64,000 bases of DNA, taken from Pseudomonadota bacterium (GTDB lineage Bacteria; Myxococcota_A; Polyangia; JAAYKL01). The translations under genes and the position numbers were made by a program. Shown here in pieces: positions 3,105-54,829 of the stretch. The first letter of the stretch is position 1; each line of letters begins with the position of its first letter. The DNA lies in contig JALNZK010000002.1 in NCBI GenBank assembly GCA_023229365.1, positions 126,343-190,342 of the forward strand, read 5' to 3'. The notes below the pieces were generated by a model that had not been told where the DNA came from, ran no database searches, and saw only the letters and a list, made by a program, of their open reading frames with translations.

Positions 3105-3464
3105 ATGAAAACTTTTCAACAATTTATGGAAATGGCTAGAGTGGCAGCCATAAAACCAGCTATCAAGTCGCAAATGAATCGAGAGATCAATGCAATTGCC
3201 AAAGGGTTTCATGATAAAATACCCCTCTCGCCAATCTTTGCCGTTCTGGAAAAACTGGGCTACCAAGCCGTGCAAGAAGATGGCACCCCGTGGTCGGGAA
3301 TGCTGGTCGGCGGGGGAGAGTGCGGCAGCGAACAATCTAGAAGCCAAGTGGCCAACATTGACATTGTTCGCAAAGAAGATAATACCCCAATGAACAATGC
3401 CCTCTACCTATCCTGGTGTAAAATGCCATCAGGCCGATATGAAGTCGTTGCATACATTAGTTAA
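3105..3464 (+). CDS. small internal-protein-like polypeptide with a CTS-like N-terminus (MKTFQQFMEMARVAA)
   Basis: N-terminus closely resembles the T4 IPIII capsid-targeting sequence MKTYQEFIAE as I recall it; GAGGT ribosome-binding site upstream. Confidence 0.6.
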   Translation: MKTFQQFMEMARVAAIKPAIKSQMNREINAIAKGFHDKIPLSPIFAVLEKLGYQAVQEDGTPWSGMLVGGGECGSEQSRSQVANIDIVRKEDNTPMNNALYLSWCKMPSGRYEVVAYIS

Positions 3465-6174: not shown

Positions 6175-6741
6175 AACTTAAACACATCTTCGCCAGACCA
6201 TCCGTTTTTCGCATATTGTGCCATCAATGACACAAATTGAATATTAGTGGAGGTGCTGGGAATCGCACCCAGGTCACGCACGGCACGCCAATGAGTTTCT
6301 ACATGTGTATCTTGCCGTTTATGTCGTCTGTATAAGCCACAGCAAGCAAAGGCTCATACGACCTATCGGCGTTATCTTAGTTCAATTTACGCCATCTACA
6401 TTGAACGCAGCCAAATTTTTGACGGGTTTTTGGACGCCTTGGCGAGCTTCCTCAACCCGTGGCCACTCACGCAGCCAGTGCAACGTAATCGTTAGCAACT
6501 AAATTTTTGACCAACTTTTTTACATGGCCTGTTGGTCAGCCATGACATGCAACTCAAGGGCTAAAACCGTCGTTCGATTCTATTCACCCCCGTTTCGGCT
6601 TTTTGCCATCCACACACAGTTTACGAAGAAGCCGAAAACTCCCTCACTGTCTTTCAAACGCATGAATGGGGCCTGTACGCTAAGCTTTCGCTTCGGTCAG
6701 GTAACGCCATTATACTTCAGAAACTTAGTTTGTAAACCCCA

Positions 6742-7630: not shown

Positions 7631-8458
7631 TTAAATATATGCTGCAAATTTCCCTCGAACTGCTGCCTGAACCACATCGGGTTTCACCCCCTTAGCCAGC
7701 AAATACTTTGCAAACTCCTCTGGGGTGTTTGGCTCTACTGGTTTAGTACGTAAACTTTTACGCATCTTCTCTTCTGCCACGTTCATAAGAATCTCCAAAA
7801 AACTCTTCCCTGATTCTATATCCAACCCCGATCCTCGACCCATTAGGTCCATCAATTTGAAAACAATCCATATTTTAATCTTGCGATCTGGGGCGAATTT
7901 GCCATCAATTCCAATTGATGCCTTAATGTGTCTACTAAGTCCCTTCTCACTAAACTCCATATGTTTTGGAACTACAAACCACACAATTTCCTTATCTTCT
8001 GGTGATAGGTTGTCCAGAATAGACTGCCACTTATTGCCTAATTTTTTTATTTGCGGCTCATAATGCTCTGGGTCTTCGTGAGCATGGGCTGTCCATTTCC
8101 CTGGTCCGAAGTCAGGTGACATCATCTGTTTTACAGTGTGCCCAGGAAAATCAGACAACGGTTTGATGGTATTATCGGGATATTTGTAGCCTGCGGTGGA
8201 GGCTTTGCCCACATCATGCAGCCAAGCAAGTATCCTCAAAAGCATTATATCCCCATCGCTGACCGATGGCAAGTTTGAAAAAGCCTCTTCTCCCCTAGCT
8301 TTCTCAAACATTTTCACAGCTACAGGCAGAGCTTTTCTAACAAGCCTTGTGTGTAAAAACACAGACCCCTCTGGGTGCCATTGTGCGGACTGTGGCACAT
8401 TTTTCAAAATATCCCGTAAGCTGCTCATTTCTAACCAATTTTTGAATTCCATTAACAT
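7631..8458 (-). CDS. HD-domain phosphohydrolase (CCA-enzyme-type HD) with a CTS-like N-terminus (MLMEFKNWLEM)
   Basis: H...LHT and AWLHDVGK HD motifs; N-terminal MEFKNWLE. Confidence 0.6.
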   Translation of the reverse strand: MLMEFKNWLEMSSLRDILKNVPQSAQWHPEGSVFLHTRLVRKALPVAVKMFEKARGEEAFSNLPSVSDGDIMLLRILAWLHDVGKASTAGYKYPDNTIKPLSDFPGHTVKQMMSPDFGPGKWTAHAHEDPEHYEPQIKKLGNKWQSILDNLSPEDKEIVWFVVPKHMEFSEKGLSRHIKASIGIDGKFAPDRKIKIWIVFKLMDLMGRGSGLDIESGKSFLEILMNVAEEKMRKSLRTKPVEPNTPEEFAKYLLAKGVKPDVVQAAVRGKFAAYI

Positions 8459-8702: not shown

Positions 8703-9929
8703 ATGAAATATCCCAAATTCAACAAGTTTCTCGAAAGAAAAGACCCAGAGTTGGTTCGCAAACCCAAAATTATCAAAACAGGCGACAAGCTAACTGGAGC
8801 CGATGATCTTTGCGGCGAACCCAATAAGCCACCCAAAGAAGCCAAGACACACAAAAATATAAAAAAAGTAGCCGATGAGCAACCTCAGGTCAAAGAAGGA
8901 TTATGGGCTAAGTTTTTGGAAAAAAAGCAGGCAAGCTCTGTGGTAGAAAAACCAGCCACGGAAATTATTGCTGACTATCCCTTCAAGCCACCCGTTGCTC
9001 CTCCCGAAGCCAAGACCAAGGGAAAAAATTGGGATACTAAGGCTCCCAAAGCCAGCAAACCCGCTGCCTATAAGCAAGGCACAGATGCTAAGCCCAAAAA
9101 TAGTGATGAAGGACTGGGTAACTTAGGGAGTATTCCCCGAGAAGAAATTAAACTCAAGGCAGGCGATTCACCACATATACCGGGCGGAAAAAGTGTTGGG
9201 GATTACACTACAAAAACAGAGACCTTCTTAAAGAAAACAAAAGGCATGCCCCTGAGCGAATTCACCCAATACATGATTAAAGAAGAGCGATCTGTTGAGG
9301 GCGTTCATCAAGCAGAAGTGCCACAAGCTATTAAATACATTGCTTCAGTAGCCAACAATGAAAACATTTTGCGAGATTTGGTTGTGGCGTTGAGACAAAA
9401 AAAATTAATCGGCAGCCTGATGGAAATGTTGATGGAATATCCTGAGTCTTATCGATCCCTTACTAATCTTTTGGGAGAAGAACAAAAAGGCTCTATGCGT
9501 TGCAATGCATTAGTACGAGCCATGAATGAAATCGTTGGTCCTCCTATTGGAATAGACAATATAGGAGACGATGAAGAAGTCACCCGTCGCATTGGTGATG
9601 ATGGCGAACCAGAAGATTTTGAAGACGATGACGAAGATTATCCAGAGGATGATGATGATTTTGAAGATGAGGATGAACTAGGTGACGAAGATGAATTAGG
9701 CGATGAGGATGAACTAGGTGACGAAGATGAATTAGGCGATGAGGATGAGCTAGGTGACGAAGATGAGTTAGGCGATGAACTAGGTGGTGAAGATGAATTA
9801 GGCGGCGAAATGCCTGGAATGGGGAAACACATAATGGGCATGATGGGCAAACATATGGGAATGCATCGAGGAAAGTTTGCAATGGACCATCTTATTCATG
9901 CATTAAATCAATATATGAAAAGAGATTAA
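8703..9929 (+). CDS. acidic protein with DEDELG tandem repeats and an M/G/H-rich tail
   Basis: AAGGAAAA ribosome-binding site; 36-bp periodic DNA repeat at 9661-9822 encoding (DEDELG)n; N-terminus MKYPKFNKFLE is weakly CTS-like. Confidence 0.6.
   Translation: MKYPKFNKFLERKDPELVRKPKIIKTGDKLTGADDLCGEPNKPPKEAKTHKNIKKVADEQPQVKEGLWAKFLEKKQASSVVEKPATEIIADYPFKPPVAPPEAKTKGKNWDTKAPKASKPAAYKQGTDAKPKNSDEGLGNLGSIPREEIKLKAGDSPHIPGGKSVGDYTTKTETFLKKTKGMPLSEFTQYMIKEERSVEGVHQAEVPQAIKYIASVANNENILRDLVVALRQKKLIGSLMEMLMEYPESYRSLTNLLGEEQKGSMRCNALVRAMNEIVGPPIGIDNIGDDEEVTRRIGDDGEPEDFEDDDEDYPEDDDDFEDEDELGDEDELGDEDELGDEDELGDEDELGDEDELGDELGGEDELGGEMPGMGKHIMGMMGKHMGMHRGKFAMDHLIHALNQYMKRD
9661..9822 (+). repeat. in-frame tandem repeat (18/36-bp unit) encoding DEDELG x ~8
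   Basis: gatgaggatgaactaggt / gacgaagatgaattaggc alternating units. Confidence 0.8.
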
Positions 9930-13409: not shown

Positions 13410-14747
13410 TCATAATGGCTTGTCATCAAACCTGATTTTCATTTGCTTGCCACCACGAGCAGGGCTCAGGAACCTTGATGATAACAGATCATACTTCACC
13501 GGGTCAACATCAGTTATTCCCAAAAGATAATTTATCATAAACCCGGCACCAGAGCCTCTGCCCGGCCCTCTTGCCGTGCTTCCCGTGCCGCCGTATAACT
13601 CGATGCATTTCTGACGGGCAGCGTCAACCATCATTTTTTGAATAATAAAATACGAAGAAAACTCCTTCTCTTTCACCAAGGTGTATTCTTCCTGCATTCT
13701 GGACAAGTATTCTCTAGTCTTTGGTATGCCTCTTTTAGTCGCACCCTCTTGGATAAGTTTTTTCAACACTTCATCATCATTGGGAATTTTTGGCAATTTT
13801 ACCGAGCGATCCAGTTGCACTCCCTTGCATTGTTCGCATATACGCACAGTATTTGCCTTGGCAGCATTAAACAAATCCTTATCGAGATAAGGGTCAGATG
13901 CCCATTTCTCATTGATCTCCTCTTCGGATTTCATCCAGAGATTAGTGTCTTGCAACTCAAAATATTCTTCAGCTTTACCTTCGGCAACGGCTTGCTCCAT
14001 ATCGGCTACCGTTCTCTTAGAGCCAGTCATAAGCATTAACCGTTGCATTTTGCTGTCTTCTTTTTTGCAATAATGACAGTCTTGTGTGAGCACTAACGGA
14101 ATGCCTAATTTTGCATGTGCTTGAACAATGAATTGGTTGTAGGGCTTTTGTTTAACAAAATCCAACAACATGATTTCCAAATAATAATTTTCACCAAACA
14201 AGTTGTGATATTTCTTGATGGTCTCTATAGCCATTTCGGGACCGAAGTTTTTAAATGCTTGTCCCACTGGACTATTAAAACAACCGCTGCCAACCATCAA
14301 CCCCTCTTTATGCTGCACTAATTGATCCCAATTAATGCGAGGCTTATAGTAGAAGCCGTGTAGCCATCCAAAAGAAGTTAAACGAACAAGATTTTTATAT
14401 CCTGTCTCGTTTTTGGCCCACAAGGTCATGTGATATGACTTCTGCATCGCCTTGCGGGCTTCTGGTGGCATCTCTTTAAGATACTGCTGCATAGTCTCGC
14501 CCTTTTGCACACAGGGCTGTTTTGGTTGATAATAGATTTCTACGCCAAAAATTGGCTGCAAACCGTGTTTATCGCAGCAAGCGATTTGGTTAGGAACAGC
14601 ACTCATCATGCCGTGATCGGTAATGCAAAGATATTGTTGATTTATTTCTTTGGAATAAATCGCATACTCTTCAACTGTGCCGTATCCATCCAACAAAGAA
14701 TAATGAGAATGGCGATGCAAATGCTCGAAACCAACTATGTCATTCAT
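13410..14747 (-). CDS. DnaE-like DNA polymerase III alpha N-terminal fragment (PHP domain plus start of palm); truncated or split gene
   Basis: HLHRHSHYSLLDG PHP motif; GPGRGSGAGFMINYLLGITDVDPVKYDLLSSRFLSP matches the DnaE thumb/palm entry, then the ORF stops. Confidence 0.65.
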   Translation of the reverse strand: MNDIVGFEHLHRHSHYSLLDGYGTVEEYAIYSKEINQQYLCITDHGMMSAVPNQIACCDKHGLQPIFGVEIYYQPKQPCVQKGETMQQYLKEMPPEARKAMQKSYHMTLWAKNETGYKNLVRLTSFGWLHGFYYKPRINWDQLVQHKEGLMVGSGCFNSPVGQAFKNFGPEMAIETIKKYHNLFGENYYLEIMLLDFVKQKPYNQFIVQAHAKLGIPLVLTQDCHYCKKEDSKMQRLMLMTGSKRTVADMEQAVAEGKAEEYFELQDTNLWMKSEEEINEKWASDPYLDKDLFNAAKANTVRICEQCKGVQLDRSVKLPKIPNDDEVLKKLIQEGATKRGIPKTREYLSRMQEEYTLVKEKEFSSYFIIQKMMVDAARQKCIELYGGTGSTARGPGRGSGAGFMINYLLGITDVDPVKYDLLSSRFLSPARGGKQMKIRFDDKPL

Positions 14748-16292: not shown

Positions 16293-17891
16293 TTATCCAA
16301 TGATTTTGTCATATTCCTGTCTGTTGACCGCAACAACAGTATCTGGTGATCTGGTGACATAGATCAATTCCTCGCCATCTTTGTCCCTGGTAGCCAATAT
16401 GACTTCTCTGTTCAACCCCCACAATCTTCGCAGAGAAAGGATGGTATCCTTTGCATAGGAAGGATATAGCGGATATCCATCCCACTGATGCTGTAACAAC
16501 ATGTGCCCTCTATTTAAATGGTTGGGATCAGCCAGCCGAACATCTGGCAATCCGCCGTTCAAATAATCGCCAATTAATTTCTTTTTAATTTTCTTATAGT
16601 CACGACTCTTGATTACATACTCTCCATTAGGTCGATGTTCCCACTCAAAGAATTCATATTTATTGCAAAAATCTTCTGTGAAGAATTCTGAAATAGCGGT
16701 GAAATCATTATAGAATTTTCTAACCTCTAATACTTTATCGTGCCCCAAGCCCAATTTTTCATCCCAATCTTCCCGCTGCTTGATATCTCGGCACTCATCA
16801 TACAGGGGTCCAAACTGGCCCTTATTCCAACGTTCTTCAATATCTTGAAAAATACAGAATCCTAATTTATAGGGATTCATCGAATACTTGCCGCCCAATA
16901 CCCCCATTTTGTGAATAGCATACTCAACAATGCCATTATCGTGTTCTGACTGGCCCAGACTAACGAAACCCTGTACTGCCATTAAGTTAAAATCAACAAA
17001 ACTAGCCCAGCCTTCGTTGAGCATTTTGGTCGGTCGTTGAGGACTGAAATATATTTCTTCCTCATAAATCATAGCAACAATATCAGACTGCCAAGGCTGC
17101 AAAGGTGCATAATCTCGAATGTACCGCAAAATGTCTTTTGTTGGCTCTTTGAAAATGTTTAATTCTTCGGCCACCTCCCTTTTTTCCAACCTCTTCCTTT
17201 GCTCCTTCATCCATTCTTCTGGATTGAGCCAAGGTTCCATATAATCATGCCCCTCTTGAACCGGCAAATGTTTTGGATGATGATAATGCCTCACGTCCTG
17301 TTTGATCGGGTCTTTAAATTTTCTCTGCTCCCAAGCACTAGCTGGATCGACCAACGTGGTAATTCTTAGCACATGATCTAAAAATTCTGTGACTTTTTCT
17401 TTGCCCCATCGTTGCATGTATTTGCGAATTCGAGTACCATGATTCGCCAATTCATTCATCATATTTTGACTAGTTGGCGAAAAGTAAACATTATTTTTGA
17501 AAAAGTCATTATGTCCTAAAGCATGAGCAACAACCGTAACATTATCCACCAACGTATTGGAATCGAGACAGTAAATATAACAAGGATTGCTATTTACAAC
17601 CATTTCGTAAATGCGATGCAGCCCATGTTCATAACCTTGTTGCAATTCATTGTATTCCATTCCCCAACGCCAATGCGGATAACGAACAGGGAATCCACCA
17701 TAGGATGCTACTTCGCTAATTTCATCATAAGTCAGCATCTGCACGACTGTTGGATAATACACCAATCCAAAGTCGGTTGCTGCTTTCATAATATTGGGAA
17801 TGACATTTTGCAATTCCTTAGGCAACACTACGCCAGGGATTGTGCTATCACCCATCAAGATCGGAGAACCACGCATCATTTTGCTTGCCAC
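16293..17891 (-). CDS. spoVR: SpoVR/YcgB-family protein
   Basis: 532 aa, SpoVR-like length and composition; immediately downstream of the DUF444 gene. Confidence 0.75.
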   Translation of the reverse strand: MASKMMRGSPILMGDSTIPGVVLPKELQNVIPNIMKAATDFGLVYYPTVVQMLTYDEISEVASYGGFPVRYPHWRWGMEYNELQQGYEHGLHRIYEMVVNSNPCYIYCLDSNTLVDNVTVVAHALGHNDFFKNNVYFSPTSQNMMNELANHGTRIRKYMQRWGKEKVTEFLDHVLRITTLVDPASAWEQRKFKDPIKQDVRHYHHPKHLPVQEGHDYMEPWLNPEEWMKEQRKRLEKREVAEELNIFKEPTKDILRYIRDYAPLQPWQSDIVAMIYEEEIYFSPQRPTKMLNEGWASFVDFNLMAVQGFVSLGQSEHDNGIVEYAIHKMGVLGGKYSMNPYKLGFCIFQDIEERWNKGQFGPLYDECRDIKQREDWDEKLGLGHDKVLEVRKFYNDFTAISEFFTEDFCNKYEFFEWEHRPNGEYVIKSRDYKKIKKKLIGDYLNGGLPDVRLADPNHLNRGHMLLQHQWDGYPLYPSYAKDTILSLRRLWGLNREVILATRDKDGEELIYVTRSPDTVVAVNRQEYDKIIG

Positions 17892-17903
17892 TATTTATTT
17901 CCT

Positions 17904-40023: not shown

Positions 40024-40773
40024 ATGAATTTTAAATTGTGGATAGAGAATGACGAAGAATACGATACCTTTGGCGATCCCAAAGAATGGCATATCGGACA
40101 ACTAGGCATCCTTGACGAATTTGGGCTAAAAGATTTCGCCGTCATTCAAGTTATCCGATTTGAAGATGTTCCACAGGCTGATCCTGAATATTATAAAATG
40201 AAAGACCGCAATACTGTCATCTCTCTCAATAAATTTGGTGGCTCAACCTACAAAAGAGGTGAAAGTGTTCCTGTTAAAATTATTCAAGCATTCGGAAGTA
40301 TATCAAAAAGTCACAAAGTTCATTTCTATGTCGGTGCCCAAAACCTCTATCGCACCATTGATGACCTTATAAAAAAAGAAATGAAAGTGCTTTACCCAGA
40401 CCTACTTATACAATTTTGGAACTCTCCACAATATCGGGCACTTATTACTGAATTTCCACAACTAAAAATAAAAAACCAATCCCCTCTGGATCAGATTCAA
40501 TACCAAGTCTACGACATTCAGGGATATACAGTCTATGTGATACCAGAGCCCCGAGTTCTAAAAAGACAAGCAGAATATCGAGCGTCTGGATATCCCCACC
40601 CTTTGCACGCCTACTACTTTGCCATTCCTGAGTTGAAGACTAGATCGCAAGACGAAAAAACAAGCCAATGGCTAAGGACGCAAAAAATGGGTGAAAATGG
40701 CATGTTCACCAGCGAACGAGAAGCACTAACTGGGGCGGAAAAATATATTAACTATTTATTTTATGGAGAATGA
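40024..40773 (+). CDS. CTS-like protein (MNFKLWIEND), function unknown
   Basis: 249 aa. Confidence 0.5.
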   Translation: MNFKLWIENDEEYDTFGDPKEWHIGQLGILDEFGLKDFAVIQVIRFEDVPQADPEYYKMKDRNTVISLNKFGGSTYKRGESVPVKIIQAFGSISKSHKVHFYVGAQNLYRTIDDLIKKEMKVLYPDLLIQFWNSPQYRALITEFPQLKIKNQSPLDQIQYQVYDIQGYTVYVIPEPRVLKRQAEYRASGYPHPLHAYYFAIPELKTRSQDEKTSQWLRTQKMGENGMFTSEREALTGAEKYINYLFYGE

Positions 40774-45232: not shown

Positions 45233-45775
45233 CTATTGTATAGGGGTTGCTTGAGGGATGCCGCCTGGACCGGGTAGACTTCCAGGTATTCCACCACCGG
45301 CACCAGGACCAGTTGCCTTATCTTGGAACATGACTTTTTTGAACCAGTCATAATCAACATACTGCGGTATTCGTTTAGTGGCTCGGGCACCTTGGGGAAC
45401 AATTTTCCACTTCATTCCTTGCCTGCCTGTTAAATCTCGTAGTCCTTTAGTTCCCGCTTTTGTAGTGGGCAAGAAATCAATTTTCATTCCCTTAATTTCT
45501 TCTCCGTCATTATCAACAGCTTTTACGGTAAAAGCTCGCAAGTTAGAAAGATTTCCGCCAGAGGGACCGATCCATGATCCAACGAACGTCTGCCCTCTTA
45601 GATCGTTAGGCTCAATACCTAATTCATAAGCTAAATTATTCCAGTCGGGCATTGGTTGGCCTCCACCCGGCATTCCTCCCGGCATTCCTCCCATAGGCGG
45701 TGCTCCTTGCATCCCTCCCATTCCAGGTGGCGGGGGTGGTCCTTGTTCCATAAATTGTCGAAAAGATAATGTCAT
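45233..45775 (-). CDS. Gly/Pro/Met-rich CTS-like protein (MTLSFRQFMEQ)
   Basis: GPPPPPGMGGMQGAPPMGGMPGGMPGGG low-complexity segment; the long upstream extension in the track is rejected. Confidence 0.45.
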   Translation of the reverse strand: MTLSFRQFMEQGPPPPPGMGGMQGAPPMGGMPGGMPGGGQPMPDWNNLAYELGIEPNDLRGQTFVGSWIGPSGGNLSNLRAFTVKAVDNDGEEIKGMKIDFLPTTKAGTKGLRDLTGRQGMKWKIVPQGARATKRIPQYVDYDWFKKVMFQDKATGPGAGGGIPGSLPGPGGIPQATPIQ

Positions 45776-45794
45776 TATAAAGATATATACCTCT

Positions 45795-46232
45795 ATGAAC
45801 ACAACATTTGAACATTTTGTCGAAGAAAAAGCCCAAAACAACAAAGAGCAAATAAAAGCTATGTTAGGCTCCAATGATTTTGTTTTCTTCTTTGAAAAAA
45901 ACAAAGAAATTTTTGGTGCCCCCGAAGAGAGCCGACTTATGTTTGCCCGCATGAAAAACCCAGACCCCGAAGATAATGACTGGGTTAAAGAAGCTAATTT
46001 CAGCGGATTAAACCTCAATAGAGCCCTAAAGGGAGAGAAAACAGAAAGTCTATTTTCCCATACTGATTTGACCAAAATCAAAATATTGGACCAAGAAGAA
46101 GCATATGATAAATTGTCCAGATTAACTTCGGATACAGATAAGATAAAAACCGTTCTTTCTGACGATGATAATCCGCACCCAGAAGCTCCTGATGCGGCTC
46201 CAGGCATCCAACAATTAAAAGACAAAAAATGA
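45795..46232 (+). CDS. CTS-like protein (MNTTFEHFVEE)
   Basis: 145 aa. Confidence 0.45.
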   Translation: MNTTFEHFVEEKAQNNKEQIKAMLGSNDFVFFFEKNKEIFGAPEESRLMFARMKNPDPEDNDWVKEANFSGLNLNRALKGEKTESLFSHTDLTKIKILDQEEAYDKLSRLTSDTDKIKTVLSDDDNPHPEAPDAAPGIQQLKDKK

Positions 46233-47035
46233 ACTTTAGGCTATTTTTAGAGCGAGAAGAGGGTGCTATAGAATGGGATACATATTATCCCAAGTGGACT
46301 CCACGACAACTTGGCGATAGGGGCATGATATCCGCATACGTTTCTAATAAACATATCAGCATTGACCAAAGCCCCTATCATCCGATGTTGAAAAAAGCCC
46401 TAAGGATATTGCTGCGACAAAAGCCACATTTAGCAAACAAGCCCTTGGATTTTGATGGTTGGTCACCAGGAACATTACAACAATTCTTATATAGCTCAGA
46501 ACCTATTGCCCCTAAAGATACACTCCCACAATTTATGTATCACGGCACATCCCTCCATCGCTGGGAACACATTAAAGAAGATGGCTTAAAACCCCTAATT
46601 GCGAGTGGTGGAGAATATGGGGCAGAGCCAATGAGTGCTCCACTTACCAACCCTAATAATGTTTACTTATCTGCAACTTTTGGAGCAGCTACCAGATTGG
46701 CCGCTTACGACGCTTCCAAAAAAGGAACAGGCGATGTTCCTGTTGTGTTGAAAATTAACACCAAACAACTTGATCCTCAAAAAATCAGACCTGATGAAGA
46801 GTCTCGTGCTACAACATGGCAAAAAAGTCTGCATGGCTTAAACACTATCGCCTACGAAGGCGAGATACCACCACAATCCATAGAACTCTATAAAGCTTGG
46901 AATCAACAAACGGATAAGTGGGAAAACCCAGGACAGTGGCTAGAGCCAACTGATTTTATAGCTCAACAAATGCTTCACAGGACAGGATATAAAGACATTC
47001 CCAACAGCACCGGCAAATATAAGTGGGCTAAATAG
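46229..47035 (+). CDS. Tpt1/KptA-like RNA 2'-phosphotransferase / ART-fold protein with a CTS-like N-terminus (MNFRLFLERE)
   Basis: LRILLRQKPHLAN...DFDGW vs KptA LSFVLRHKPE...DREGW; MYHGTS...GLKP...VYLSATF...VPVVLKI vs KptA LYHGTA...GL...VHLSAD...PVIL. Confidence 0.6.
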   Translation: MNFRLFLEREEGAIEWDTYYPKWTPRQLGDRGMISAYVSNKHISIDQSPYHPMLKKALRILLRQKPHLANKPLDFDGWSPGTLQQFLYSSEPIAPKDTLPQFMYHGTSLHRWEHIKEDGLKPLIASGGEYGAEPMSAPLTNPNNVYLSATFGAATRLAAYDASKKGTGDVPVVLKINTKQLDPQKIRPDEESRATTWQKSLHGLNTIAYEGEIPPQSIELYKAWNQQTDKWENPGQWLEPTDFIAQQMLHRTGYKDIPNSTGKYKWAK

Positions 47036-47194
47036 CAAAAAACGCTATCGGCCCCAAAGCCAAACAAAGTAAAAAACAAAATAAAAAAGAAACCCATTCT
47101 GTCAAACTCTTCGGCACACCACATTGCCAACTCACTCTACAAAATTGCATAAATCCAAGTAACATCCATATCAACAACACAATTAAAAGAAAAT

Positions 47195-47887
47195 ATGCCA
47201 TTTCGGCCTCCTTTTAATATATATATCAATATGACATTGCCATTTGAAAACAATAAAGACGTAAGAAAGTACCAGTGTTTTGTCTGTGGAGTGCAGTTCT
47301 TAGAACTCAACGAAATGACAGAGCACATCAAAGAAAAACACCAAGAAGGCAGAGATTATGTGCTTTGTCCTTTGCTCTATTGCAAATGTTGCGTTAGGGA
47401 TTTAGTTCATCATTTTAAAGCACGTCACCCTTCTCAGCCCCTGCCCAAAAACAGACAAATGAAAGCTATTGTATGGAAAGATTTTACCGCCCAAGGAACG
47501 GCAAAAAAGAAAAAACAAAGATTTAAAGAGGGTTGGTATGTTTCTACAAAAATGAATAAGCAATTTTATTTTAGAAGCGGTTGGGAAGAAACTGTATTCG
47601 AATGTCTGGACCAAATGAATGAAGTAGCCGCTTATGAAGCAGAGCCTTTTAAAGTTCCCTACATCTGGGAAGGCACTCAGCACGAATACAATCCCGACAT
47701 TCTGGTGGTGTTTAATGATGGGCGTAAAGAGGTTTGGGAAATAAAACCATCAGATCAAACCTCTTTACAACAAAATAAAAATAAATGGCATGCAGCTAAT
47801 GAAATGTGTAAAGCTAGAGGATGGGAATTTATTGTAATGACAGAGAAGGGAATCAATCAATTAAAGAAAAGGGTTGGAAAGAAATGA
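47195..47887 (+). CDS. C2H2-type zinc finger fused to a PD-(D/E)xK nuclease-fold domain
   Basis: CFVCGVQF...H....H zinc finger; NPDILVV...EVWEIKP. Confidence 0.45.
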   Translation: MPFRPPFNIYINMTLPFENNKDVRKYQCFVCGVQFLELNEMTEHIKEKHQEGRDYVLCPLLYCKCCVRDLVHHFKARHPSQPLPKNRQMKAIVWKDFTAQGTAKKKKQRFKEGWYVSTKMNKQFYFRSGWEETVFECLDQMNEVAAYEAEPFKVPYIWEGTQHEYNPDILVVFNDGRKEVWEIKPSDQTSLQQNKNKWHAANEMCKARGWEFIVMTEKGINQLKKRVGKK

Positions 47888-48462
47888 CTTTTCGCATCTG
47901 GTTGGAACAGAATCGTCCACAAGTTGAGCCGAATTTTTCAATGCAAGTCTGGGATGCCTGCATTAAGCACGTTCCTGTTGGTACTACTATTTACCGAGGG
48001 TTTAGAATCCATAAAGATTTGCGAAAAATGACCATTCGACAAATTCTCTCACAATCTTTTAAAAGCAATGCAAAACCCTTCGATCCGTGGACTTTGGATT
48101 TTGCCGTAGCTCAAAGATTTGCTGCCGGGGCTCACAGCAATGCTGATGGAACATCAGGAAGAATGGAAGACACAGCCAGAGTAATTGTATCAGCTAAAAT
48201 TGTCCAACATAGAAATGTAATAGATTTGAAACAATTTGGCGACAAAATAATGGGCCACAACGTAAGCAAAGGCAGTGGCATTAACACCTATTGGCAACCT
48301 AGAATGATTGGCAAAGCAACAATCGATGATCGTGATGTGGAAAATGAAATACCCATTTTAAGAACCGCCTATGCTAACCCTCAACTATTTCCTTTAACTG
48401 GATATTGGACAGAAGAAAACGGACAATGGGTGCAAGGAAACAAACCAGCAGCCTTATCTTAA
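47884..48462 (+). CDS. CTS-like protein (MTFRIWLEQN); possible R-S-E-type ART (IYRGF, SQS)
   Basis: ATGA overlap with the upstream stop; weak ART motifs. Confidence 0.45.
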   Translation: MTFRIWLEQNRPQVEPNFSMQVWDACIKHVPVGTTIYRGFRIHKDLRKMTIRQILSQSFKSNAKPFDPWTLDFAVAQRFAAGAHSNADGTSGRMEDTARVIVSAKIVQHRNVIDLKQFGDKIMGHNVSKGSGINTYWQPRMIGKATIDDRDVENEIPILRTAYANPQLFPLTGYWTEENGQWVQGNKPAALS

Positions 48463-48773
48463 AACCCATCAATAAAAATAACAGTCTCTACACCTTCTTT
48501 GCTTTCTAAATATACTGTATCTGGCTCTATTGTGTTATCTATCACAAGCTCCAATCGCCGTTCTCCAAATCCTGTTTCTAATTGCTCCTCAAAACTTGGC
48601 ATACAATAAAAAGTAGAGGCAATATCACTGGTAGTTCTGAGTTTGGTGGTGCTGAAACCACAACGCCCTTTGATGAAATAATGCAATGCATTAATTTTTT
48701 CAACTTCAGTGGCGGGTGGATGGTCAACAACTATATTAAAGTCATAAGTTAAAGCGTTCATGATCTTAGCCAT
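48459..48773 (-). CDS. hypothetical protein
   Basis: 104 aa. Confidence 0.4.
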   Translation of the reverse strand: MAKIMNALTYDFNIVVDHPPATEVEKINALHYFIKGRCGFSTTKLRTTSDIASTFYCMPSFEEQLETGFGERRLELVIDNTIEPDTVYLESKEGVETVIFIDGF

Positions 48774-49975
48774 TCCCTAAATCCCATCTTACGCAACATT
48801 TCCTTGGTGTTATGTTGCATAATATGTTGCCCAATTTCTTTGCCTTGTAATTCGGCTGCCCCTGGAACTTCATCCCTGTTCATCAATTGGTGTGTTCGCA
48901 ACTGTTGAATAGCACGAGTATCCAGACCATGCAACTGACTCCATGCTTCCAAATCCTCAGGTGACATATCCCGCTGCCCTTTTCTCAGACTCCACAAGAA
49001 GGCAGGATGCTCTTTTAGCTTATCTTGAATATTGGGCAAATGAAGCAAATTGACCAAATACACCACATTGTCCACTTCATCATTAGTGTATTTTAATTGA
49101 TTTAATTTTCTTCTGATCTTTTCCACATCATTGAGCCGCAACAGATGGGCAACCAATATAACAGGATTCTTGGTCTCCACATAATCATGGCTGACCACTA
49201 ACCCTGGAAATACATATTTTTGCAACAATCCTAATTGATGATAGAGACTTACATAACCCACAACTGATTTAGCAGATTTTAAACCCTTAATAAATTCGTC
49301 TCTGACCCGCTCGGGTGCCACAGCCACGCCATTATCGCTTGCCAGCCCATTATTGACTCGTTTTTCAATAGCCGCACGAGTTGCTTCATCAATGCCTCTG
49401 ATGTCGCCATGATTTACACGGCAATAGAACCGCACATATCTTAAAACTCTCAGAGCATCCTCGCCAAACCGTTGGTCGGGATCACCCACAGTTTTAACAC
49501 GTCGCTCTTTCAAGTCTTGTAATCCGCCAACCAAATCAACCACTTCATGACTGTCTAAATCATAATAAAGAGCGTTGATTGTTAAATCTCTTCTTTCGGC
49601 ATCGTCTTGGATATGGGAAAATTTATCAGCTACTTGACGACTGCCAGAATCCTTGCGAAAAGTGGCAATTTCATAATCTTCATTACCAATTGAGGCTATA
49701 ACCACCCCGAATTGATTTCCTACAGCACCTTTGGTATGGTTAATGCCACCAGCTTTAAGAATTTCCATTACTTCTGTGGGCTGTGCATTCGTGGCTAAAT
49801 CGAAATCTTTGGGCTGTTTTCCCAATACTGCATCTCGTACTGCACCTCCCACCAAATATAGATGTTTGCCCGATTTTTTAAATACTCTATGAATAACATG
49901 AATATCCTCTGGCAAATTGATTGACAGGTGCATTCGCACTTCTTTACTTTCTAAAAATTGCATAAAACTAACCAT
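48758..49975 (-). CDS. cca: CCA-adding tRNA nucleotidyltransferase (class II NTase head) with a CTS-like N-terminus (MVSFMQFLES)
   Basis: HLYLVGGAVRDAVLGKQPKDFDLAT, RRDLTINAL. Confidence 0.8.
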   Translation of the reverse strand: MVSFMQFLESKEVRMHLSINLPEDIHVIHRVFKKSGKHLYLVGGAVRDAVLGKQPKDFDLATNAQPTEVMEILKAGGINHTKGAVGNQFGVVIASIGNEDYEIATFRKDSGSRQVADKFSHIQDDAERRDLTINALYYDLDSHEVVDLVGGLQDLKERRVKTVGDPDQRFGEDALRVLRYVRFYCRVNHGDIRGIDEATRAAIEKRVNNGLASDNGVAVAPERVRDEFIKGLKSAKSVVGYVSLYHQLGLLQKYVFPGLVVSHDYVETKNPVILVAHLLRLNDVEKIRRKLNQLKYTNDEVDNVVYLVNLLHLPNIQDKLKEHPAFLWSLRKGQRDMSPEDLEAWSQLHGLDTRAIQQLRTHQLMNRDEVPGAAELQGKEIGQHIMQHNTKEMLRKMGFREWLRS

Positions 49976-49994
49976 ACCTTATATATAATATAAA

Positions 49995-50639
49995 ATGAAC
50001 TTTAGAAATTGGATAGAGCACAAATGGTACGAATTTAAAGATACCGTGGAATTATATCACGGCACCTCTAGTGCCTTGCTTCCAATTATTAAAACGAATG
50101 GATTGGTGCCACCTGATGAGTGTTTAGAGTCATATGCTATTAAAATAATCAAATCATATGGAGTTGCCGCAAGCCCGCAATTAATGGAATGGATTCACAA
50201 ATACGCAATTTCATCAAGAGCTAATGAACCAAACAACAAAATAGCTAACGTAATTTATTTAACTCCCAAATTCGAGAATGCAAAAAACTACGCAAAATCC
50301 ACCCATAAATTTGGGGGAGAAATGGCGGCTGACATTTGGCGAGCTATCAATGTAATTGAAAGCAAAAAAAGAGGTTTGCCAAAAATGCAGGAAATTATAC
50401 CTCCCATTTACAAAGAATCTCATCCTGTAGTATTAGAAGTAGAAATCCCATCTAAATGGATGAATACATATCATGATTTAGCACAACGATATAAAGATGC
50501 ATTAGACTACTGGGCAACCTTGAAATCTAAGCCAGATGTTCACGATTTTATGGAGAAAGAATTTGGTCGCTTTGAAATAAGAGTAGAAGAGACTATTCCT
50601 GCGTCAATGATAAGAAAAATTCACGCAATAATGTCCTGA
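49995..50639 (+). CDS. Tpt1/ART-fold C-lobe-like protein with a CTS-like N-terminus (MNFRNWIEHK)
   Basis: LYHGTS...GLVP...VIYLTP. Confidence 0.5.
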   Translation: MNFRNWIEHKWYEFKDTVELYHGTSSALLPIIKTNGLVPPDECLESYAIKIIKSYGVAASPQLMEWIHKYAISSRANEPNNKIANVIYLTPKFENAKNYAKSTHKFGGEMAADIWRAINVIESKKRGLPKMQEIIPPIYKESHPVVLEVEIPSKWMNTYHDLAQRYKDALDYWATLKSKPDVHDFMEKEFGRFEIRVEETIPASMIRKIHAIMS

Positions 50640-51271
50640 AATATCTTGTGATTCTCTGAATCTTTCCCTGGGATGGCAAACACTACGTTTTCAAACACTT
50701 TGTCAAATTCACCACCCTTCAAAAACACCTTAAATGTAGTAGCAATCATGGCGGGAGAATTATTAAATATTCCACATCCCCATGCTCCAAGAATTAAATG
50801 TTTGTGGTTGTGAACAGCGGCAATTTCAAGAATGCGACGAATACGATTCACAATCAGCAAAGTGTCTTTTGGCTCGGGATTAACCACCGCTGGCATGGAA
50901 ATTACAGCTACCGAATAAGGATCAACAGGGTCTAATTGCTTGTCTTTATTCACCACCACATTAGAGCAATATATAGCATCTAGTCCATTGCGAGGAAGAG
51001 GATAGTATTTATGAATCTCAGGAATATCTAACAATTCTGGCAAATTGGAACGACGAAAAAGGTCTTCTTCTTGAGTGCGAATCGGCATACGCAAATTGCG
51101 AACTGATTCGTAGCCCCCACCAGGACGCTTATGAGAAGCAAAATTTAAACAACAAGCGTGGTCAAACTCAGCGGCTGTTGTGAATGTGTCATTATCAACA
51201 ACTGAGAATTGTGTCTGCTCCACCACAGGAGATGGCACAAATGAGAACCCCTCTGAATATAATTGAATCAT
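50621..51271 (-). CDS. PARG-like macrodomain protein (DUF2263 / TIGR02452 family)
   Basis: LNFASHKRPGGG...QEED...RRS and LILGAWGCGIF. Confidence 0.6.
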   Translation of the reverse strand: MIQLYSEGFSFVPSPVVEQTQFSVVDNDTFTTAAEFDHACCLNFASHKRPGGGYESVRNLRMPIRTQEEDLFRRSNLPELLDIPEIHKYYPLPRNGLDAIYCSNVVVNKDKQLDPVDPYSVAVISMPAVVNPEPKDTLLIVNRIRRILEIAAVHNHKHLILGAWGCGIFNNSPAMIATTFKVFLKGGEFDKVFENVVFAIPGKDSENHKIFQDIIA

Positions 51272-51274
51272 AAT

Positions 51275-51553
51275 CTACCAATGTTCTTTGGTGTTTAATG
51301 TATGAATAAAATTTCCAATCTCCTGCAATACCTTTTCAGCATCATTACCTTCTGCCTCAAAAATTATTTCGCTGCCTGATTGAATGCCCATAGAAAGCAT
51401 TTCCAACACAGAGCTAACATGTGCTCTTTCGCCATTATGTACAAGTATTACTTTAGCTGAAAATGGCTTAATTAACGCTGCCAACGCTGTGCATGGTCGA
51501 GCATGTAAGCCGCAAGGATATGTTAAAATAAGGGTTTTTGTCACTCTGTCCAC
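51275..51553 (-). CDS. HPr-like phosphocarrier protein
   Basis: GLHARP (His15 context) and ...SSVLEMLSMG... (Ser46 context); 92 aa. Confidence 0.6.
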   Translation of the reverse strand: MDRVTKTLILTYPCGLHARPCTALAALIKPFSAKVILVHNGERAHVSSVLEMLSMGIQSGSEIIFEAEGNDAEKVLQEIGNFIHTLNTKEHW

Positions 51554-53058: not shown

Positions 53059-53457
53059 TCATCTATTTTTCAAAATATTTGGAAGATTGTCTAGTTCTTT
53101 TGGCAAAATGCCCGCATTTATCATCTCTTGAGTTTCTAATAAACAGCAAGCGTTCCAAATCACCGCACTCAGGTGATCTTCGTCTTGTAGTCCTGCTGTA
53201 AATTTAAATGCGTGCCGAAGCATAGAATCCAAATACCTGCTCAGGGGAATACCCTTTGCCCAATTTGAATCTCCATATTTCCTAGCCCCGTTTTCAAAAT
53301 GTTGTGCCAGTCGGGTAATCGCATAATATGGCAACAAATCAAACCTTCCCTTGCCATCTTGGGTGTCCCTAACAGCCCCGGTGCCAAACTCTTGTCTAGC
53401 CCCTGAATCCATTACCTTGTCGAATTTAGTTGGTGTCTCGCTCATGTTAAACCTCAC
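53059..53457 (-). CDS. possible dATP/dGTP diphosphohydrolase N-domain-like protein
   Basis: DSGARQEFGTGAVRD..GKGRFDLLP. Confidence 0.4.
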   Translation of the reverse strand: MRFNMSETPTKFDKVMDSGARQEFGTGAVRDTQDGKGRFDLLPYYAITRLAQHFENGARKYGDSNWAKGIPLSRYLDSMLRHAFKFTAGLQDEDHLSAVIWNACCLLETQEMINAGILPKELDNLPNILKNR

Positions 53458-54475: not shown

Positions 54476-54829
54476 ATGAGTTTTAGACAATTTGTAGAAG
54501 ATGCTGCGGCTTGGGATGCTTTTCAAGACGTTTTCTTTGTTGGAGAATACGAAGGGCAAGCAAGTGATTTCTATTGCTGGCTTCGCCAACGCTGGAGTGC
54601 CAATCAATCCCCTCAAGATTATGATTACAAAGGATTGGAAAGATTGTTTGCTGATTGGAAAAAAAGCACAGTTCGTGGTGCATGGTGTGCAAAAATGGAT
54701 CGAAGTCGAGATCGCAAACGAAGAAAAGACTTCGGCCCAGGCAAATATTGGGCACCTACATCAGCAGGTGTCTTCCTAAATAAAAACTTTGTAAAAGGAT
54801 GGAGAGGTATCAATCCAGCAAACCCATGA
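54476..54829 (+). CDS. CTS-like protein (MSFRQFVEDA)
   Basis: 117 aa. Confidence 0.45.
   Translation: MSFRQFVEDAAAWDAFQDVFFVGEYEGQASDFYCWLRQRWSANQSPQDYDYKGLERLFADWKKSTVRGAWCAKMDRSRDRKRRKDFGPGKYWAPTSAGVFLNKNFVKGWRGINPANP

Follow-up and report, generated by a model that had tools for sequence, protein, structure and literature searches.

A variable island in a huge-phage genome fragment encodes ADP-ribosyltransferase-fold proteins and a CCA-type nucleotidyltransferase that share a leader resembling the T4 capsid-targeting sequence

The DNA described here (64,000 nucleotides of contig JALNZK010000002.1, assembly GCA_023229365.1; below, "the window") belongs to a 340-kb contig of a metagenome-assembled genome (MAG), and the deposited names of its proteins take the form 'MAG: hypothetical protein M0R80_021xx [Proteobacteria bacterium]'. 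Its gene content and relatives mark it as a fragment of a huge-phage genome that was binned as a bacterium, and the contig was probably mis-binned. The closest complete relative is the 595-kb uncultured phage LR756511, to which the window's PrkA homolog is 68% identical and its helicase, endonuclease and poly(ADP-ribose) glycohydrolase (PARG) are 48–51% identical; at the nucleotide level the region matched no phage record. Our subject is the interval at about 45–55 kb, which encodes three proteins with a YHGT motif and a predicted ADP-ribosyltransferase (ART) fold, a CCA-type tRNA nucleotidyltransferase (the CCA enzyme), the PARG and an HPr-family protein, and the short N-terminal peptide (the leader) with which the three YHGT proteins, the CCA enzyme and a distant putative HD phosphohydrolase begin. 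The initial annotation took these genes to be a packaged module for RNA-end repair and ADP-ribosyl metabolism. The open reading frames (ORFs) concerned were confirmed and are as follows:

46229..47035, plus strand: 268-aa ART-fold protein, leader MNFRLFLE; predicted member of a distinct H-Y-D (PDED) ART family, not Tpt1
48758..49975, minus strand: 405-aa class II CCA-adding/poly(A)-polymerase-family tRNA nucleotidyltransferase, leader MVSFMQFLE
49995..50639, plus strand: 214-aa ART-related protein, leader MNFRNWIE; H22, Y88 and a conserved FE[IV]R strand, candidate H-Y-E type
50621..51271, minus strand: 216-aa bacterial-type PARG (macrodomain), without leader
51275..51553, minus strand: 92-aa HPr-family phosphocarrier, without leader; immediately upstream of the PARG gene on the same strand, with a 3-nt gap
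54826..55242, plus strand: 138-aa putative minimal H-Y-E-type ART, leader MKFKQWLE; YHGT, GFYLTP and GKEVVLF motifs
7631..8452, minus strand: 273-aa putative HD phosphohydrolase, leader MEFKNWLE; 40 kb from the interval

In six-frame translation the window contains just three YHGT motifs (nt 46538, 50055 and 54859), each inside one of the ORFs above and followed downstream by a [VIF]-Y-L-[ST] strand (NVYLS, IYLT or FYLT, one per protein); the putative NAD-binding His of strand 1 and Tyr of strand 2 are recognizable in all three proteins. The 268-aa protein displays the split β-sheet ART fold. A tblastn search with it found no match in phage records, and its family consensus found a single weak one (LR756508); an exhaustive profile search reached 771 clusters at E≤1e-3, 195 of them at E≤1e-10, and matches in BFVD include six phage G proteins. 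Column statistics show G106, T107, G119 and D189 to be invariant, and H105, L120, P122, Y146, L147, D191 and Y209 invariant or nearly so (of 157 aligned domains, 152 keep H105 and 154 keep Y146), while E210 varies. The conserved pattern of the family, as it emerges from the alignment, is His, Tyr and an Asp of the PDED motif, with D189 or D191 as the candidate catalytic acid.

The initial annotation placed this protein in the Tpt1/KptA family, with the catalytic His replaced by Gln. The strings LLRQKP and DFDGW cited for that assignment are indeed present, and Tpt1 is the best structural and sequence neighbor of the family (DarT1 is second); the two share the l-Y-H-G-T...I...G-L-x-P NAD-binding element and the V-[YH]-L-S strand. 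The Pfam Tpt1 model PF01885, however, scores only 26.8 bits against a cutoff of 26, matches residues 91–122 alone (the NAD-binding β1–α1 stretch) and touches just 16 of 60 family members, and the Tpt1 equivalog models of NCBIfam (PRK00819) give 21.5, 14.4 and 12.6 bits against cutoffs of 231–239, a tenfold shortfall, so that no full-length Tpt1/KptA match above a curated threshold was obtained from Pfam or NCBIfam. A profile of 60 family sequences finds Tpt1 structures at 8e-6, but only across l-Y-H-G-T...G-L-x-P, and finds DarT1 at 1e-3 over a longer stretch. The Tpt1 catalytic tetrad, established by Tpt1 biochemistry, is Arg-His-Arg-Arg. In 154 sampled family members the column of R63 holds K, R, E or A and that of Q64 holds Q, K, E or A; the family is thus not characterized by the tetrad, and the argument from a His-to-Gln replacement fails. 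No aligned counterparts of the other two tetrad arginines were found in the 268-aa protein, its DxxGW-to-HGT segment is about 40 residues shorter than that of Tpt1, a deeper profile aligns its N-terminal region to a different part of Tpt1, and the invariant acidic PDED motif is absent from Tpt1. The family appears to be a sizeable, uncharacterised group of NAD-using enzymes, and those nearest to it act on RNA and DNA, not on proteins.

Many members of the 268-aa family are internal domains of proteins of 700 to 3,700 residues, which a Pfam scan identifies as polyvalent proteins. One (P0031) combines the domain with ART-PolyVal, NUDIX and DarA_C domains, another (P0042) carries a topoisomerase IB, a third (P0067) SprT and HAD_SAK_1, and a metagenomic protein of 1470 aa (P0075) has an N-terminal PolyA_pol/CCA-type head, an ART-PolyVal domain and a 268-aa family ART in one chain. 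Polyvalent proteins are predicted to be packaged in the head and injected (PMC5512222; PMC9503650), so the P0075 fusion joins an ART and a CCA-type nucleotidyltransferase elsewhere within a delivery-associated class of proteins. A His-Tyr-Asp-like configuration was described for polyvalent-protein ARTs by Iyer et al. (PMC5512222), and the 268-aa family shares this pattern as well as residence beside ART-PolyVal in such giants. The ART-PolyVal model PF18760 matches other segments of the polyvalent proteins that bear the family domain and one leader-bearing IMG/VR protein; it matches none of the three YHGT proteins of the window at E≤0.1, and in the 268-aa family the conserved acid lies in the PDED motif, whose assignment to a strand is provisional.

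The other two YHGT proteins are more distant. The initial annotation called the three "paralogs", which is too strong: BLASTP among them gives E values of 0.009 and 0.004 over the motif region alone. Membership of one superfamily does stand, since hhalign against the 268-aa family gives 96.9% (E 1.6e-10) for the 214-aa and 93% for the 138-aa protein, and the three appear to be remote relatives with a common ART fold; phrog_13493 is common to the 214-aa and 268-aa proteins. H22, Y88 and the FE[IV]R strand of the 214-aa protein come from an alignment of seven homologs. The 138-aa protein resembles the Exotoxin-A catalytic domain in Pfam (E 0.018), is 33% identical to a leader-bearing mini-ART from IMG/VR (L085:126-605), and the weak PDB matches of its profile are nearly all ARTs. 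H22/Y88 and H13/Y41 of the 214-aa and 138-aa proteins, respectively, occupy the His and Tyr positions of H105/Y146, and alignment proposes E194 and E118 as their candidate catalytic Glu residues.

The identity of the CCA enzyme was borne out. It has a PF01743 PolyA_pol head (1e-35) and a PF12627 RNA-binding domain, matches phrog_2244 at 1e-49, human TRNT1 at 1e-30 and E. coli PAP at 1e-28, and its translation carries GGAVRD, DFD, ERRDLT and EDALR, the motifs of a class II head. By these matches it is a full-length class II CCA-type nucleotidyltransferase; it lies below the NCBIfam equivalog cutoffs (150.8 against 290), and since the pcnB and CCA models score alike, they do not assign CCA as against poly(A) specificity. 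Class II CCA-type enzymes are common in large phages (370 phage records); the window enzyme is set apart by its capsid-type leader. Nucleotidyltransferase and HD proteins are encoded by separate genes in Aeromonas phage 65 as well. A tblastn alignment of the CCA enzyme's N-terminus to that phage from residue 2 onward proved spurious, as it enters a non-coding frame upstream of the annotated start.

The HD protein is less certain. The initial annotation's CCA-type HD phosphohydrolase has the leader and a visible H...HD-x-GK signature (H...HDVGK), but the only profile match is a marginal one to HDIG (E 0.049), and a PDB search gave no significant match and so did not strengthen the assignment.

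The PARG assignment is firm (PF10021, 1.5e-12 and 48.6 bits against 23.5; TIGR02452, 6.8e-31 and 107.8 bits against 50). The protein aligns with the Thermomonospora curvata PARG structure 3SIG (TIGR02452/DUF2263) at 9e-23 through NFAS-x-x-x-PGGG, QEE and GAWGCG-x-F-x-N-x-P (here GAWGCGIFNN), and the glycine-rich loop, whose loss would have counted against the initial annotation, is intact, as are the catalytic loops. It differs from T. curvata PARG in being about 50 residues shorter at the N-terminus, in a 6-residue insertion (GGG-to-QEE spacing of 13, against the signature GGG-X6-8-QEE), in being encoded by a phage and in lying beside HPr. Its homologs in phage records belong to the largest genomes in 19 of 20 matches (LR756511, Lak phages, phage G and LR756502), the sole exception being a 23-kb fecal 'Bacteriophage sp.' record. 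At least 10 ARTs have been reported for phage G (PMC9503650). The HPr protein was likewise confirmed (PF00381, 1e-18 and 67.6 bits against 23; TIGR01003, 8e-19 and 67.3 against 47.9), with both phosphorylation sites apparently intact (CGLHARP for His, VSSVLEM for Ser); its homologs in phage records are few and mostly in short fragments, and none is present in LR756511. The genes for HPr and PARG form one minus-strand run with those for an endonuclease VII, a DUF6899 protein and a PF18909 protein (dATP/dGTP diphosphohydrolase N-terminal domain, 53059-53445, minus strand, 3.7e-20).

The leader is 8–10 residues long, with the consensus M-x-F-[RK]-x-[WF]-[LI]-E. The pattern M.{0,3}F[RKM].[FWY][LIVM][EDQ] is found at ten ORF starts in the window, and among 89 non-overlapping ORFs nine begin with the relaxed motif where 0.27 are expected; three further leader ORFs (one of them 45795-46232) were lost by the choice of ORF start, which brings the number to at least 12. 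Neither PARG nor HPr carries it. Codons for the leader vary synonymously and the DNA upstream of the leader genes is unrelated, so selection acts on the peptide, and a DNA- or RNA-level element was rejected on the same grounds. The remaining leader genes, and two spacers between divergent members, are these:

3105..3464, plus strand: 119-aa protein starting MKTFQQFMEMARV (MKTFQQFME), the window's closest match to the capsid-targeting sequence of T4 IPIII, MKTYQEFIAE
8703..9929, plus strand: 408-aa protein, relaxed leader MKYPKFNKFLE
26487..26795, minus strand: 102-aa protein, leader MSFRSWLE
40024..40773, plus strand: 249-aa protein, leader MNFKLWIE
45233..45775, minus strand: 180-aa Gly/Pro/Met-rich protein, leader MTLSFRQFME; kept beside the endonuclease gene in LR756511, where it starts MTLGFRQFVE
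45776-45794, no strand: 19-nt TATA-rich spacer TATAAAGATATATACCTCT between the divergent leader genes 45233..45775 and 45795..46232
45795..46232, plus strand: 145-aa ORF with leader-like start MNTTFEHFVEE, upstream of and overlapping the 268-aa ART gene
47884..48462, plus strand: 192-aa protein of unknown fold, leader MTFRIWLE; one homolog only
49976..49994, no strand: 19-nt TATA-rich spacer ACCTTATATATAATATAAA between the divergent start codons of the CCA enzyme and 214-aa ART genes
54476..54829, plus strand: 117-aa protein, leader MSFRQFVE, overlapping the start of the 138-aa mini-ART gene; no Pfam or PHROG family match

The 192-aa protein has no Pfam, PHROG or PDB match and no relation to the H-Y family, and its AlphaFold2 (AF2) model has a pLDDT of 32; an R-S-E ART was suspected from the strings IYRGF, TLD...AQRFA and ENE, and as no match supports it we do not claim it. 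Of 12 leader genes, 5 have a TATATA[TA]A box in the 45 nt upstream, as against 1 of 66 other genes. The box is reminiscent of the T4 late promoter, TATAAATA. The two 19-nt TATA-rich spacers suggest candidate bidirectional late-type promoters, possibly giving leaderless mRNAs. Most genes in the window lack an obvious Shine-Dalgarno sequence.

Similar leaders are found well beyond the window. Twenty-six of 154 representatives of the 268-aa ART family, from other metagenomes, carry one, and a search of IMG/VR with the back-translated pattern gave 95 stretches against about 20 expected by our estimate, with an internal-match subfamily (MNFR-x-WME-x-QDW) set aside as unrelated. Chance was discounted as the source of these matches, as most are true ORF starts and several contigs hold arrays (10 of 12 ORFs in L018, 6 of 8 in L095). 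The tagged proteins include CCA enzymes, YHGT ARTs, NUDIX proteins, ART-PolyVal proteins and other nucleotidyltransferases, a repertoire like that of polyvalent proteins (Tox-ART-HYD2/PF18760; Iyer et al. 2017, PMC5512222); the difference is that the window's predicted effectors are separate genes with short tags of their own, where a polyvalent protein is one giant MuF- or portal-linked polypeptide. Contig L085 has three tagged genes in a row, for a mini-ART, a 99-aa protein and a CCA enzyme, next to a gp2-like DNA end protector. Tagged CCA enzymes are present in at least four other independent contigs or genomes (L049/L076, L003, L085 and LR756502), and this recurrence implies that the enzyme may be delivered as a protein. 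In LR756502 the CCA gene itself (MIITKYAKFLES) is the single leader-like ORF in the surrounding 41 kb, and the CCA enzyme of LR756511 has a looser leader-like start.

The peptide is probably a short variant of the capsid-targeting sequence (CTS) of T4. The T4 CTS is MKTYQEFIAE (PMC8442874), in which positions 4 and 7 set targeting and 8 and 10 set processing (PMC9026906). Like the CTS of the T4 internal proteins IPI-III, the leader is a peptide of about 10 residues at the extreme N-terminus, in which two aromatic residues stand three positions from each other and an aliphatic residue and a final Glu complete the pattern; it differs in that the window tag has 8 residues rather than 10, its Glu standing one residue closer than in T4, directly after the aliphatic residue. 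Bridging forms exist: MKTFQQFME in the window and MKTFKQFFNE in Caulobacter phage Cr30, whose gp060 is a 106-aa YHGT mini-ART with this start and whose adjacent gp059 starts MKTFKITGTD (L100 3992-4605), and MKTF-, MITF- and MNF-type starts occur together in the same contigs. Cr30, a phage described as T4-like, is cultivable and carries the tag on an ART. In contig L062 four small tagged proteins (MNFKQWLE, MKTFNEWLIE, MKSFNEWVLTE and MKSFQQYIE) flank a gp21-like head maturation protease (phrog_207, 8.6e-49), which shares 60% identity with the protease of LR756511. LR756511 has homologs of gp20 (3e-32), gp21 (5e-21) and gp23 (1e-30) in T4 order, and 19 of its 897 ORFs bear the leader motif where 1.9 are expected, one of them 1 kb from the capsid gene. 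A gp21 homolog is thus present in LR756511 along with gp20 and gp23, and a gp21-like protease lies beside leader genes in L062; no such protease or prohead core was found in the 64-kb window. Points of likeness to T4 are the head genes of the nearest relative and, in a related contig, the small tagged proteins arrayed close to the protease; T4 also packages an ART, Alt, that is delivered with its DNA, and we infer such packaging here. Alt, however, is an R-S-E ART with a different propeptide, and the T4 tag is found on small basic internal proteins rather than on H-Y-type ARTs, a CCA enzyme and an HD protein. The initial annotation's observation of a CTS-like peptide on the CCA enzyme and the distant HD protein has held, the ARTs bear it too, and comparison with other phages now ties the peptide to T4-type head assembly.

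On balance, we favor, with a degree of confidence slightly on the positive side, the reading that the interval is an island of a huge phage that encodes individually tagged effectors, packed into a T4-type head and injected with the DNA. The leader genes would be expressed late from TATATA-type promoters; the peptide would dock the proteins onto the prohead core and then be cut off after its Glu by the gp21-family prohead protease, and the mature enzymes would be ejected together with the DNA. Once injected, the ARTs may use NAD+ to modify host macromolecules. Tpt1 and DarT, which are closest to them in structure, act on nucleic acids, so RNA or DNA is no less likely a target than protein. The injected CCA enzyme could restore the 3′ ends of tRNAs ahead of any phage gene expression. 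The leaderless PARG, co-oriented with HPr, would stay in the cytoplasm and remove ADP-ribose marks, either protecting the phage factory from its own ARTs during their synthesis or erasing defensive ADP-ribosylation by the host.

Several observations weigh against this picture. No structural (head) genes were seen within the window, and the T4-type head is shown only for the relative LR756511. About 13% of the ORFs in the window have the leader, a high fraction for a packaging tag, and its Glu directly follows the aliphatic residue (W-L-E), where the T4 protease consensus is L/I-x-E. For the 214-aa and 138-aa proteins the ART assignment is drawn from profile similarity that spans the first two motifs; for the 268-aa protein the AF2 model is of only moderate quality, with a pLDDT of 65.6, and the place of the PDED Asp at the NAD pocket is putative. 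Finally, the genes of the interval are on alternating strands, tblastn at 1e-4 found no homologs of the three window ARTs in LR756511, and the functional link among ARTs, CCA enzyme, PARG and HPr is one of association, not of operon structure.

These last points raise the alternative that the clustering means nothing, the interval being a hyperplastic island of unrelated accessory genes in which ARTs, CCA enzyme, PARG and HPr are independent. The interval is bounded on one side by the tagged MTL[SG]FRQF gene and the ZnF-TnsA endonuclease gene, and on the other by a CxxC protein and a helicase:

47195-47887, plus strand: C2H2 zinc finger and TnsA-like/endonuclease I-like nuclease fusion, 50% identical to its LR756511 counterpart; synteny anchor

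Relatives of this nuclease are labelled 'head closure' in PHROGs. Between the same anchors LR756511 has unrelated genes and no YHGT ART, and because content differs so completely between conserved anchors, the interval is a variable accessory island and not an operon. With PARG and HPr untagged as well, the initial annotation's single packaged module was not sustained. LR756511 moreover has no homologs of these ARTs or of the HPr protein (a YHGT-motif scan gave a single unrelated ORF; the screen covered these three ARTs and not other ART families), and its CCA and PARG genes are outside the syntenic interval. They are nevertheless within 12 kb of each other; the ART–CCA association appears to be recurrent, given the adjacency in the independent contig L085 and the fusion of ART domain and PolyA_pol head in P0075; and phage PARG homologs are nearly confined to the largest genomes, including that of the ART-rich phage G. 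A wholly meaningless cluster thus seems somewhat unlikely, though it deserves to be kept in mind.

Another alternative grants the leader a shared role and makes it some other signal, such as a chaperone- or partner-binding, degradation or localization tag, so that the enzymes would act only in the producing cell. It would suit the lack of structural genes in the window, the large tagged share of ORFs with housekeeping-type enzymes among them, and the departure from the L/I-x-E rule. Yet the peptide passes continuously, by bridging forms, into the T4 CTS as established by experiment, is co-located in L062 with a gp21-type protease and small basic internal-protein-like proteins, belongs to a lineage whose nearest relative has a T4-type head module, and marks a set of proteins (ART, NUDIX, nucleotidyltransferase) that mirrors the polyvalent injected proteins, and the promoter-like boxes resemble the T4 late promoter. 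We therefore consider such a signal unlikely.

It is also conceivable that ARTs and PARG are a toxin–antidote or writer–eraser pair after the manner of DarT-DarG, with PARG neutralizing the phage's own ARTs or ART defenses of the host, and that the tRNA enzyme is unrelated. The likeness lies in an H-Y-E-clade ART with a neighboring macrodomain that removes ADP-ribose; DarT1 is the second-best structural match of the 268-aa family and a significant profile match, the 214-aa ART and PARG genes overlap tail-to-tail by 19 nt, and the PARG catalytic residues are intact. The two genes, however, are convergent and not co-transcribed; the macrodomain belongs with the bacterial PARGs (TIGR02452) and not with DarG; unlike DarT-DarG this is a phage element with a capsid-type tag on its ARTs; and LR756511 keeps PARG without homologs of the three window ARTs. 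A dedicated pair of this kind is quite improbable.

Least probable is that the 268-aa protein is a divergent Tpt1/KptA (His to Gln) that makes up an RNA-end repair pathway with the CCA enzyme, the HD protein and a PARG-like macrodomain acting on ADP-ribose-1″,2″-cyclic phosphate (Appr>p): the barely passing PF01885 score, the Tpt1-like LR-x-KP...D-x-x-GW string and the occurrence of KptA and CCA enzymes in jumbo phages (PMC7824862) speak for it, and the confinement of the match to some 32 residues around HGT, the variable R63/Q64, the missing arginines, the inconsistently aligned and shortened N-terminal region and the family-wide PDED conservation speak against it. No RNA ligase, 2H phosphoesterase or Pnkp-type phosphatase or kinase-phosphatase was seen within the window, which would leave a Tpt1-style healing pathway without partners and, unlike T4 Pnk/Rnl tRNA repair, without a ligase or kinase-phosphatase, so the repair context given in the initial annotation is not maintained. 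PARG-type macrodomains are glycohydrolases and are not known to process Appr>p.

The remainder of the window also has the character of a large phage genome, with nucleotide-metabolism enzymes, several DNA methylases, a PrkA/DUF444/SpoVR trio, a tmRNA and homing endonucleases. The phage-encoded tmRNA gene (6247-6591, minus strand) specifies the tag peptide ANDYVALAA according to ARAGORN. At 16293-23948 (minus strand) the genes for the PrkA serine kinase, the YeaH-like DUF444 protein and the SpoVR-like protein stand together, an arrangement known from the bacterial stress operon; Thermus phages, RsoM2USA and further huge phages have PrkA homologs too. Five DNA methylases of the N6_N4, D12 and MT-A70 types are encoded at 33–44 kb, and together with the PF18909 protein they hint at extensive DNA modification in this phage. 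A 445-aa ORF at 13410-14747 (minus strand) consists of a PHP domain and only the first part of DNA polymerase III alpha, and is a split or truncated replicative polymerase gene. The window further encodes a GluRS/GlnRS catalytic-domain protein (PF00749, 1.8e-23) and a circularly permuted YpsA SLOG-family protein (PF12694, 4.2e-35). SLOG domains have been counted among the components of NAD/ADP-ribose networks (Iyer et al. 2022).

There are precedents for packaged ARTs, for CTS tags, for polyvalent effectors and for phage CCA enzymes. What appears to be new is a short CTS variant that tags separate enzymes of huge phages, a tRNA 3′-end repair enzyme among them, a combination that we did not find in the searchable literature. 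With more reserve we propose that a large clade of uncultivated phages with T4-type heads, including genomes of 340–600 kb, may use a short, cleavable N-terminal tag to load a modular, fast-changing arsenal of separate enzymes into the capsid; just as tentatively, that arsenal would include a CCA-adding enzyme, an HD hydrolase and ARTs of an H-Y-D family that is akin to Tpt1 and DarT and has not been described before. For annotation, the YHGT proteins are not to be named Tpt1 orthologs, nor the "His to Gln" difference a catalytic substitution.

Injected proteins decide the first seconds of infection and are known experimentally for only a handful of phages. If the favored reading is true, the 'ejectome' of uncultured phages could be read directly from sequence by means of the tag, and the injected arsenal could be predicted for thousands of them, the largest known included. 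Repair of tRNA 3′ ends and NAD-dependent modification of nucleic acids or proteins would then begin at DNA entry, and a pre-made CCA enzyme would be a new counter to host defenses that target tRNA, acting before any phage transcription.

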